From Escherichia coli (GTDB taxonomy: Bacteria > Pseudomonadota > Gammaproteobacteria > Enterobacterales > Enterobacteriaceae): a stretch of 64,000 nucleotides of DNA. The stretch is taken from assembly GCF_045037415.1 (NCBI RefSeq), contig NZ_CP173438.1; one strand, written 5' to 3'. This document shows, piece by piece, positions 9,001 through 12,000 of this stretch. Position numbers: made by a program. Positions within the stretch are counted from its first letter, which is position 1. Each line of letters opens with the position of its first letter.

Positions 9001-12000
9001 TTAATTTCCCTTCCAGATCTTTCCAGTAATGCTTTTATTATTTTCTATTTTTAGCTGGACTTTTCCCATATTTACTGATGATATATCCAGGTATTTAGCG
9101 CGATGCGGATGTGTTGGCGCACACCCGCACCGCTCATCACAATCACTATTTATAGGGAATAGCAGTTATGACTGACACGCATTCTATTGCACTACCGTTT
9201 GAAGCAGAAGTCTCCCCGGCAAATAACCGTCAATTAACCGTGAGTTATGCGAGCCGCTACCCGGATTACAGCCGTATTCCCGCCATCACCCTGAAAGGTC
9301 AGTGGCTGGAAACCGCCGGTTTTGCCACCGGCACGGCGGTAGATGTCAAAGTGATGGAAGGCTGTATTGTCCTCACCGCCCAACCACCCGCCATCGAAGA
9401 GAGCGAACTGATGCAGTCACTGCGCCAGGTGTGCAAACTGTCGGTGCGTAAACAAAGGCAGGTGCAGGAGTTTATTGGGGTGATTAGTAGCAAAACGCCA
9501 CGCTAAGTTTCTCTCCCCTTCCCCACACGGGAAGGGGAATTTTCCCCCTCACTCCACATCCTCCCTGCGTAACCCAATATCCCTCAACCGCTCATCACTC
9601 ATCTGCTGTAACACTCGTCGGGTCTGCATTTGCCGCCGCCAACGCCTCACCGCCTGCCAGAGTTGCACAAGTCTGATAAACGGCGTTTTGGCTTTGTTTT
9701 CGTAAAATTCCATCTGCTGCCTCCTCATCTTTCAGAGGCTTCATCATCCGTCTTCTGGCAGTTCACAATACAGATGCAAATATTAGTTTTATTTAACATA
9801 CAGACAGATTAAAACAGCATCTGCATCCGGTTTTTTAGCCTCATCTGTACCGGTTTTTCTCTCTGTATGGTCCAAATAAGGAATACAGCATGACGCGTTA
9901 TCAACATCTGGCGACTCTACTTGCCGAGCGGATTGAGCAGGGGCTGTATCGTCACGGGGAGAAATTGCCGTCGGTGCGCAGCTTAAGTCAGGAGCACGGC
10001 GTCAGCATCAGCACCGTGCAGCAGGCGTACCAGACGCTGGAAACGATGAAGCTCATCACTCCGCAGCCGCGTTCGGGGTATTTTGTCGCACAACGTAAAG
10101 CCCAGCCGCCAGTGCCGCCGATGACGCGTCCGGTGCAGCGCCCGGTGGAAATTACCCAGTGGGATCAGGTACTGGATATGCTGGAGGCGCATAGCGACAG
10201 TTCCATTGTTCCGTTAAGCAAAAGCACGCCGGATGTCGAAACGCCCAGCCTGAAACCGCTGTGGCGGGAGCTAAGCCGGGTGGTGCAGCATAATCTGCAA
10301 ACCGTTCTCGGTTATGACTTGTTAGCCGGTCAGCGAGTGTTGCGAGAGCAGATTGCCCGCCTGATGCTCGACAGCGGCTCGGTAGTCACCGCCGATGACA
10401 TCATCATTACCAGCGGCTGCCATAACTCGATGTCGCTGGCGTTAATGGCGGTGTGTAAACCGGGCGATATTGTCGCGGTCGAATCCCCCTGTTATTACGG
10501 TTCGATGCAGATGCTGCGTGGCATGGGCGTGAAAGTGATTGAAATCCCAACCGATCCAGAAACAGGCATCAGCGTTGAAGCGCTGGAACTGGCGCTGGAG
10601 CAGTGGCCGATTAAAGGCATCATTCTGGTGCCAAACTGTAATAATCCGCTGGGATTTATTATGCCGGACGCGCGCAAACGGGCCGTTCTCTCTCTCGCTC
10701 AGCGTCATGATATTGTGATTTTTGAAGATGATGTCTACGGTGAACTGGCAACGGAGTATCCGCGCCCGCGGACCATTCATTCCTGGGATATCGACGGGCG
10801 AGTGCTGCTGTGCGGCTCGTTCAGTAAAAGTATTGCACCTGGCCTGCGCGTGGGCTGGGTCGCACCGGGGCGCTATCACGATAAACTGCTGCATATGAAA
10901 TATGCCATCAGCAGCTTTAATGTGCCGTCCACGCAAATGGCGGCGGCAACGTTTGTGCTGGAAGGTCACTATCATCGCCATATCCGGCGGATGCGGCAGA
11001 TCTATCAGCGCAATCTGGCACTTTATACCTGCTGGATACGGGAATATTTTCCCTGCGAAATCTGTATTACGCGCCCGAAAGGCGGATTTTTACTGTGGAT
11101 AGAATTGCCTGAACAGGTCGATATGGTCTGCGTCGCGCGGCAGCTGTGCCGCATGAAAATCCAGGTGGCGGCAGGCTCGATTTTCTCGGCTTCCGGCAAA
11201 TACCGTAATTGTCTGCGCACCAACTGCGCTTTGCCGCTCAGCGAAACCTATCGCGAAGCACTGAAGCAAATTGGCGAGGCCGTGTATCGGGCAATGGAAT
11301 AAATTCGACATAGTGGCGAAGCGCCTGATTTACTCTCACGAATAGAGTGTGACTCGTTTTATCTTTGCAGGGTAATCGCCACGTTCCAGCATGGCTTAGG
11401 CAAAGTGCGCTTTGTTCATACCGGATGCGATGTGAACGCCTTACCAGGTCTACAAAATCTTTAAAGTTAAATATATTTAATGGGTTATGTAGACCTGATA
11501 AGCGTAGCGCATCAGGCTGCTTTGCGTTTGTCATCAGTCTCTGATTAGTACTCGATCCATGGATCGCGCTTGCTTTCAGGCAAGGGCTGATCTAATGCCT
11601 GCATTTGCTCTGCCGAAAGTCCGGTATATCGTTGTATCCATTCAGGATCCGCCCCATTCTGCAACAACAATCGGAGGAGGCTCTTTTCCCCTTCTTCTTT
11701 CCCTTCTTTCCTCCCCCTCTCCCTTCCCAACAGCCATCCATCATTATGAATTCGCTCTGCAATCGTCATTATTCGCTCCCTGTGTTGTGGCATTCGACGG
11801 ATAAGTTCGCTGATAAACTCATTAAAACGCGCTTCATCGCCAGTCAGTAAAATGTAATTTAACAGCGCGGTTATCTGGCTGTCATTAGCGCACCCTGTAA
11901 CCAGTAATACTGCCAGTTGATCAATAAGCCCCATTAGATCGCGCTGGCGAATATGCTTTTGGATCAACTCCAGCAGGGCGACTCTGCGATGCTGCACAAT

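Follow-up and report, generated by a model that had tools for sequence, protein, structure and literature searches.

The window analyzed here is a 64,000-nucleotide stretch of Escherichia coli DNA from contig NZ_CP173438.1. Between the convergent gene symE and the divergent gene yjiR, its minus strand carries a short open reading frame that is absent from the ORF track. The locus raises the question of whether this frame is a genuine gene and, if so, which gene it is, where its product begins and what that product may do. The elements of the reading frame are as follows:

9549..9713, minus strand: yjiS coding sequence, 54 amino acids plus stop, with 11 Arg residues, a pI of 11.1 and DIGL at residues 45-48
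9720..9726, minus strand: Shine-Dalgarno sequence GAGGAGG, 6 nt 5' of the yjiS ATG
9726..9728, minus strand: upstream in-frame ATG, which would yield a 59-amino acid form, overlaps the Shine-Dalgarno sequence and is unconserved

Read on the minus strand from 9713 to 9549, the frame runs ATG GAA TTT TAC ... GTG GAG TGA. The sequence surrounding its start is ...AGATGAGGAGGCAGCAGATGGAATTTTAC..., and translation of 9549..9713 gives MEFYENKAKTPFIRLVQLWQAVRRWRRQMQTRRVLQQMSDERLRDIGLRREDVE, an exact match to the 54-residue peptide that an earlier sequence-only reading had placed on this strand behind a GAGGAGG ribosome-binding site. That reading also described the gene as missing from the ORF track. 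This is correct for the track itself, because the longest mechanical ORF of the frame, 59 amino acids from the ATG at 9728, falls below the 60-amino acid cut-off, but the omission is a length-threshold effect only, and in identical genomes the gene carries a RefSeq annotation. On the opposite strand, an antisense shadow ORF at 9630..9812 (plus strand, 60 amino acids, TTG start) passes the same cut-off. It was rejected as a real gene on the basis that pN/pS is higher in the antisense frame than in the yjiS frame; stop-free antisense stretches are common among yjiS relatives. The methodological lesson is that a cut-off of 60 amino acids conceals real small genes: here, a mechanical ORF of 59 amino acids was lost and a shadow ORF of 60 was kept.

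The identity of the frame was assessed by family searches and by comparison with annotated genomes. A Pfam search, which had been proposed as a check on a DUF1127 signature noted in the sequence, returned PF06568 (DUF1127/YjiS-like) at 50.1 bits, well over the gathering score of 23.3 (E = 2.3e-13), with residues 18-54 aligned to positions 1-37 of the 37-position profile. The traits taken as characteristic of this family were small size, a high Arg content (family mean about 14%) and a D-[IV]-G-L motif near the C-terminus. In the present peptide, 11 of the 54 residues (20%) are Arg and the motif takes the form DIGL, within which D45 and G47 are invariant or nearly so among the aligned relatives. 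A scan of the peptide against NCBIfam gave no family, so the name yjiS rests on the Pfam match and on RefSeq annotation. Among complete E. coli genomes, many of the Nissle 1917/ST131 (O25b:H4, JJ1887) type were 100% identical to a 1-kb query around the ORF, and in each of them RefSeq annotates "yjiS: DUF1127 domain-containing protein"; the Nissle 1917 coding sequence, WP_000397910.1, has equal boundaries.

The window protein and K-12 YjiS (b4341, NP_418761.1) are both 54 amino acids long and share 49 of 54 residues (91%), the five substitutions relative to K-12 being H4Y, R7K, A10T, G14R and K44R. The two loci also have an equal Shine-Dalgarno sequence and start, the divergent partner yjiR and a control region of 176-177 nt, and differ in the in-frame upstream ATG, which is open in the window allele and closed in K-12. 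With 91% amino acid identity to b4341 and a conserved place divergent from yjiR, the gene belongs to the yjiS orthologue group, as had been proposed, and is a B2-lineage allele of yjiS. Abandonment of this assignment had been foreseen if neither a DUF1127 match nor translation evidence came to light; the Pfam match is present, and orthologue evidence exists, from Ribo-seq and western blotting in Salmonella (PMC11707872) and from genetics and biochemistry in E. coli (PMC12501420). The gene is already known: it is annotated in RefSeq, named in K-12, has been a landmark of the Immigration Control Region (ICR) for 20 years and had its function studied in 2025.

Conservation was examined in 62 loci from species-representative genomes of Escherichia, Citrobacter, Klebsiella, Raoultella, Kluyvera, Leclercia, Lelliottia, Enterobacter, Shimwellia, Yokenella, Pantoea, Tatumella and Erwinia, and in five further loci. 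Salmonella loci were not retrieved by the genome-scan peptide patterns, and the Salmonella yjiS neighborhood was left out of the locus comparison. The start codon is ATG in 68/68 relatives, and the length is exactly 54 amino acids in 58 of these 68. A Shine-Dalgarno-like G(A/G)GGAG sequence (GAGGAG or GGGGAG) is kept before the start across Enterobacterales. For 55 unique 54-codon genes, mean pairwise pN/pS was 0.317 in the yjiS frame, the lowest of the six frames, with values of 0.46-1.48 in the others. These comparative data show that yjiS is a real protein-coding gene, subject to purifying selection and conserved in its ATG, Shine-Dalgarno sequence and 54-amino acid length. An AlphaFold2 model built from a 40-sequence alignment (mean pLDDT 79) contains a long helix at residues 9-37 followed by two short helices, and the peptide includes the hydrophobic stretch PFIRLVQLWQAV. 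A PDB sequence search with a YjiS profile found no relative at E < 0.05.

The neighborhood 3' of yjiS is variable, and the elements that lie there in the window are listed below:

9097..9173, minus strand: symR, the antisense RNA of symE (RF01809, 83.1 bits; gathering score 61)
9168..9506, plus strand: symE (SymE_toxin; NF010128, 215.9 bits), convergent with yjiS, its last ~7 codons unlike those of K-12
9513..9539: GC-rich hairpin (CCCCTTCCCC/GGGGAAGGGG) with a 10-11-bp stem, a possible common 3'-end element

When positions 1..14000 of the window were compared with the K-12 region by BLASTN, three collinear blocks were observed: 1-645 (yjiA), 9037-9485 (symR/symE, 92%) and 9544-13487 (yjiS, yjiR, rpnD, mdtM, 94.4%). 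Homology to K-12 symE thus stops at 9485. The segment 646-9036 is without a K-12 counterpart; in Nissle 1917 it contains BrnT/BrnA, a gene for a restriction endonuclease and a type I system ordered hsdM-hsdS-hsdR. Where K-12 has about 7.6 kb separating the yjiS block from the symE block (yjiT, the yjiV pseudogene, mcrC, mcrB and the final 21 nt of symE), the window has 58 nt. The suggestion that yjiS sits where mcrBC would be in K-12 is therefore only partly right: the 7.6-kb yjiT-yjiV-mcrC-mcrB block is indeed absent between yjiS and symE, but yjiS itself is at its usual K-12 place beside yjiR. The sequences 3' of the yjiS stop are unrelated in the two strains, K-12 having an AT-rich spacer followed by yjiT-yjiV-mcrCB and the window a GC hairpin followed by convergent symE. 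Homology to K-12 restarts 5 nt past the yjiS stop codon and continues through yjiR, and therefore yjiS marks the exact border of the variable segment. The ICR has been described as a replaceable cassette flanked by two framework genes, yjiS and yjiA (PMC2481252, PMC3874165, PMC3874153). In the window, yjiS directly flanks the variable restriction-modification cassette, with K-12 homology over 1-645 and again from 9544, and belongs to the conserved framework that borders the ICR on one side.

The convergent stop codons of symE (9506) and yjiS (9549) are separated by a spacer of 42 nt (9507..9548), and it had been claimed that both genes end at the same terminator. A strong GC hairpin is present in this common spacer: on the yjiS strand its folding energy is -31.3 kcal/mol (z = -4.4), and for the symE strand the value is -20.2 kcal/mol (z = -3.8). 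On the other side of that claim, a consensus terminator scan of 9000..10000 found no site, and the stem is followed by a short U-run (AAUUUUCC) on the symE strand only, the yjiS strand having AGAGAAAC and no U-tract. The hairpin is real but is no canonical terminator for yjiS, and a role as a terminator common to yjiS and symE is plausible. In an Rfam search of 8800..10100 at a permissive E-value, symR alone passed, and matches in the yjiS region and at the hairpin scored far below their gathering scores. Of 5426 complete E. coli genomes, 919 have the yjiS-symE hairpin junction. The hairpin stays beside yjiS in E. coli C (NCTC122), but a truncated hsdR takes the place of symE; K-12 is without the hairpin, and the yjiS genes of other genera usually have a canonical hairpin and U-tract of their own after the stop codon.

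The genes 3' of yjiS vary between genera. On the 5' side, wherever the sequence of a related locus reaches far enough upstream, yjiR is adjacent to yjiS and divergent from it, and the spacer measures 175-178 nt. The elements on this side are as follows:

9714..9889: divergent yjiR-yjiS control region of 176 nt, with five conserved CTGTA(T/C) boxes
9768-9773, 9798-9803, 9845-9850, 9863-9868 and 9883-9888, in the yjiR-yjiS spacer: the CTGTA(T/C) boxes
9890..11302, plus strand: yjiR, with GntR and Aminotran_1_2 domains, a MocR/GntR-type PLP-dependent-fold transcription factor

Alignment of 60 unique yjiR-yjiS spacers revealed blocks of at least 95% conservation that contain the five boxes. The exact sequence CTGTAT occurs four times in the spacer, with about 0.1 occurrences expected (Poisson P about 4e-6). 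The boxes look like a putative YjiR operator. A Pho box (PhoB) or a PhoP box upstream of yjiS was also considered by eye and was rejected on the spacing and second half-site of the CTGTnnn repeats, which are wrong for either, a YjiR operator being preferred. A consensus promoter scan of 9000..10000 found none, and no sigma-70 promoter could be placed there. The heptamer TCTGTAT is over-represented across the window as a whole too.

The function of YjiS was addressed in two studies published in 2025. According to Remme et al. (PMC12501420), YjiS is the only DUF1127 protein of E. coli, and a yjiS mutant has an elevated pstS mRNA level, takes up phosphate faster and grows slightly less well. Contact between YjiS and PhoR was observed with purified proteins in a Far-Western blot and, for one fusion orientation only, in a bacterial two-hybrid assay, and an Agrobacterium triple DUF1127 mutant regained pstS repression when supplied with E. 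coli yjiS (PMC12501420). In the model of those authors, the basic YjiS docks on an acidic, charged cytoplasmic region of PhoR and favors the PhoU-dependent phosphatase state (PMC12501420). Venturini et al. (PMC11707872) reported that the 54-amino acid Salmonella YjiS is transcribed, ribosome-protected and visible by western blot in SPI-2-inducing medium. The protein was peripheral at the inner membrane and extractable by high salt, an association made probably via an N-terminal amphipathic helix; it co-purified with inner-membrane proteins, the kinase SsrA among them, and gave no sign of RNA binding in pull-downs (PMC11707872). Salmonella YjiS reportedly fails to complement the Agrobacterium mutant (PMC12648545). 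In the literature searched, no paper was found with direct evidence from Ribo-seq or proteomics for YjiS of E. coli itself.

Taken with the conservation of the gene, this literature makes it very probable that the window carries an ordinary functional yjiS allele, coding for a small modulator of the sensor kinase PhoR. By analogy with its orthologues, the product would be a highly basic, mostly helical peptide of ~6.9 kDa whose hydrophobic N-terminal helix would hold it peripherally on the cytoplasmic face of the inner membrane. There it would engage the cytoplasmic part of a sensor kinase, in E. coli PhoR. PhoR so bound would be biased toward a low PhoB~P output, and pstS, the Pho regulon and phosphate uptake would be held down. 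The present allele probably acts like K-12 YjiS, which is reported to bind PhoR and to limit pstS expression and phosphate uptake (PMC12501420): four of the five substitutions are N-terminal to the domain, and the one inside it, K44R, is conservative. Transcription of yjiS is predicted to be under YjiR control via the conserved CTGTAT boxes, and the transcript probably stops at or near the GC hairpin common to convergent symE.

Comparison with related and analogous proteins places this reading in context. Salmonella Typhimurium YjiS resembles the window protein in its 54-amino acid length, its Arg-rich C-terminal DUF1127 domain with DIGL and its hydrophobic N-terminal helix, but has traits of its own, namely SsrA as partner and an SsrB motif in its promoter; E. 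coli is without SsrA/B. Partner choice within the YjiS clade may vary, because Salmonella YjiS pulls down SsrA and not PhoR and reportedly does not complement the Agrobacterium mutant. SDP1-3 of Agrobacterium tumefaciens and CcaF1 of Rhodobacter share the Pfam domain and the high Arg content of YjiS, and E. coli YjiS can replace SDP function in pstS control (PMC12501420). These proteins are nevertheless only about 24-34% similar to YjiS and come from alphaproteobacteria with several paralogues, and CcaF1 is an RNA-binding protein whose gene is co-transcribed with sRNAs. An additional N-terminal segment, MEFxEN...PF, sets the enterobacterial YjiS clade apart from SDP1-3 and CcaF1. The PhoQ modulators MgrB and SafA are analogous to YjiS in being shorter than 70 amino acids, located at the inner membrane and able to tune the output of a two-component kinase. 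They have no sequence relationship to YjiS and are membrane-inserted, acting on the periplasmic domain of the kinase, whereas YjiS is peripheral and cytoplasmic, its proposed target being the charged cytoplasmic linker of PhoR (PMC12501420).

The main rival to this reading is that YjiS is chiefly a small RNA-binding protein like CcaF1, its Arg-rich helices acting on sRNA maturation or mRNA stability rather than on a sensor kinase. The same Pfam domain, the 20% Arg content and the pI of 11.1 would all suit such a role, and the two activities could coexist in one protein, given that CcaF1 binds RNA yet complements the phosphate phenotype of Agrobacterium (PMC12501420; see also PMC8034643). Against this, RNA association was absent from the Salmonella YjiS pull-downs (PMC11707872), and E. 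coli YjiS bound purified PhoR directly (PMC12501420). In the window, yjiS has no sRNA gene joined to it; symR, which lies close by, belongs to symE, and in other genera yjiS retains yjiR and not symE. A primarily RNA-directed function is accordingly judged unlikely, and modulation of PhoR is preferred.

The two other alternatives are less probable still, on grounds of conservation in one case and synteny in the other. Translation could start at the ATG at 9728 and produce the 59-amino acid form, since the frame is open from there in the present allele and a few database entries, such as P0046, carry this form. That ATG nevertheless overlaps the Shine-Dalgarno sequence itself (ATGAGGAGG) and has none of its own, and the RefSeq entry is of 54 amino acids. 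The 54-amino acid form is the conserved product, because the frame between the two ATGs is open in only 6/66 related loci and is shut by a TAG in K-12 and Klebsiella, most relatives likewise having a stop there; use of the longer form is considered very improbable. A functional tie between yjiS and the defense and toxin cargo beside it, as a SymE partner or as part of the ICR cassette, could be suspected in place of a housekeeping regulatory role from the way yjiS adjoins symE (42 nt and a common hairpin) and the type I restriction-modification cassette. It is hard to reconcile with the end of K-12 homology 5 nt past the yjiS stop, which leaves yjiS outside the variable cassette, or with the literature definition of yjiS as a conserved flank of the ICR (PMC2481252, PMC3874165, PMC3874153). 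Moreover, Klebsiella, Citrobacter, Kluyvera, Erwinia and others have unrelated genes after yjiS (MarR/efflux, fimbriae), yet always yjiR before it. Synteny thus speaks largely against a cargo role, which we regard as scarcely credible.

If yjiS encodes a 54-amino acid modulator of PhoR, the signal that sets its level may be sought in its divergent partner. YjiR is still counted among the uncharacterized E. coli transcription factors (PMC9308461, PMC4797297). The supplement to an in silico study published in 2016 by Suvorova and Rodionov (PMC5320631) gives COG5457, the DUF1127 COG, as the regulon predicted for YjiR in Enterobacteriales, and names COG5457 targets for a rhizobial MocR regulator as well. 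The proposal that YjiR controls yjiS is therefore not new in outline. YjiR was not found by text search in the main text of either 2025 paper on YjiS (PMC12501420, PMC11707872), and the 2016 link from YjiR to COG5457 and the 2025 link from YjiS to PhoR are not connected in the main text and supplement of PMC5320631 or in the main text of PMC12501420; the relay that they would form as a whole may be undescribed. In this relay, YjiR would sense an amino compound or a PLP-related ligand and switch yjiS via the five boxes, and YjiS would in turn reset PhoR. We put it forward tentatively, as somewhat less than an even prospect. If true, it would place the Pho regulon under the influence of an amino-compound signal, and the conserved operator-like boxes together with the invariant YjiR partner make the regulation of yjiS directly testable.

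The Immigration Control Region (ICR) cassette, which occupies window 646-9036, showed no relation to the EcoKI/Mrr region of K-12. The features of this cassette and of the adjacent region are as follows.

about 680-1256, in the ICR cassette, BrnT/BrnA toxin-antitoxin
about 1453-2619, in the ICR cassette, stand-alone restriction endonuclease gene
about 2683-8953, in the ICR cassette, type I R-M system with gene order hsdM-hsdS-hsdR
9097-9173 (-), intact symR (Rfam, 83 bits)
9630-9812 (+), 60-aa ORF with a TTG start, antisense to yjiS
9714-9889, yjiR-yjiS divergent spacer
11545-12501 (-), intact rpnD-like gene (318 aa) for an Rpn-family recombination-promoting nuclease

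The start of hsdR was placed at TTG 5678 by the ORF lister but 12 nt further downstream in RefSeq. By contrast with the intact rpnD-like gene, rpnD is annotated as a pseudogene in K-12.

Homology of symE to K-12 stops 21 nt short of the stop codon (window 9486-9506 differs), and the SymE C-terminus (...GVISSKTPR) differs from that of K-12 SymE. Given these differences, the alignment places a cassette breakpoint within the symE 3' end. The GC hairpin found 3' of yjiS in the window was also observed 3' of yjiS in E. coli C NCTC122 (positions 2501-2559 of the collected yjiS locus L070), but there a truncated remnant of hsdR, and not symE, precedes it. Such an arrangement indicates that, in the E. 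coli C lineage, the hairpin stays on the same side of the ICR border as yjiS.

The ORF at 9630-9812 barely meets the 60-aa cut-off, whereas the genuine gene, yjiS, falls short of it at 54 or 59 aa. Because pN/pS was higher in the antisense frames than in the yjiS frame, this ORF was rejected as a gene and considered a shadow ORF.

Among yjiS loci collected from other genomes (L008, L009 and L064), E. coli-like yjiS (98% identical) was found on MAG contigs named 'Collinsella sp.' and 'Bacillota bacterium', and a Citrobacter-like yjiS locus under the label 'Chryseobacterium sp. 18061'. These assemblies are probably mis-binned or contaminated.

The yjiR-yjiS spacer is of almost constant length from Escherichia to Erwinia (175-178 nt) and contains five conserved CTGTA(T/C) boxes, at 9768-73, 9798-803, 9845-50, 9863-68 and 9883-88. 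These boxes probably form an operator of the MocR-type regulator YjiR, a reading that agrees with the YjiR to COG5457 regulon predicted in silico in 2016 (PMC5320631).
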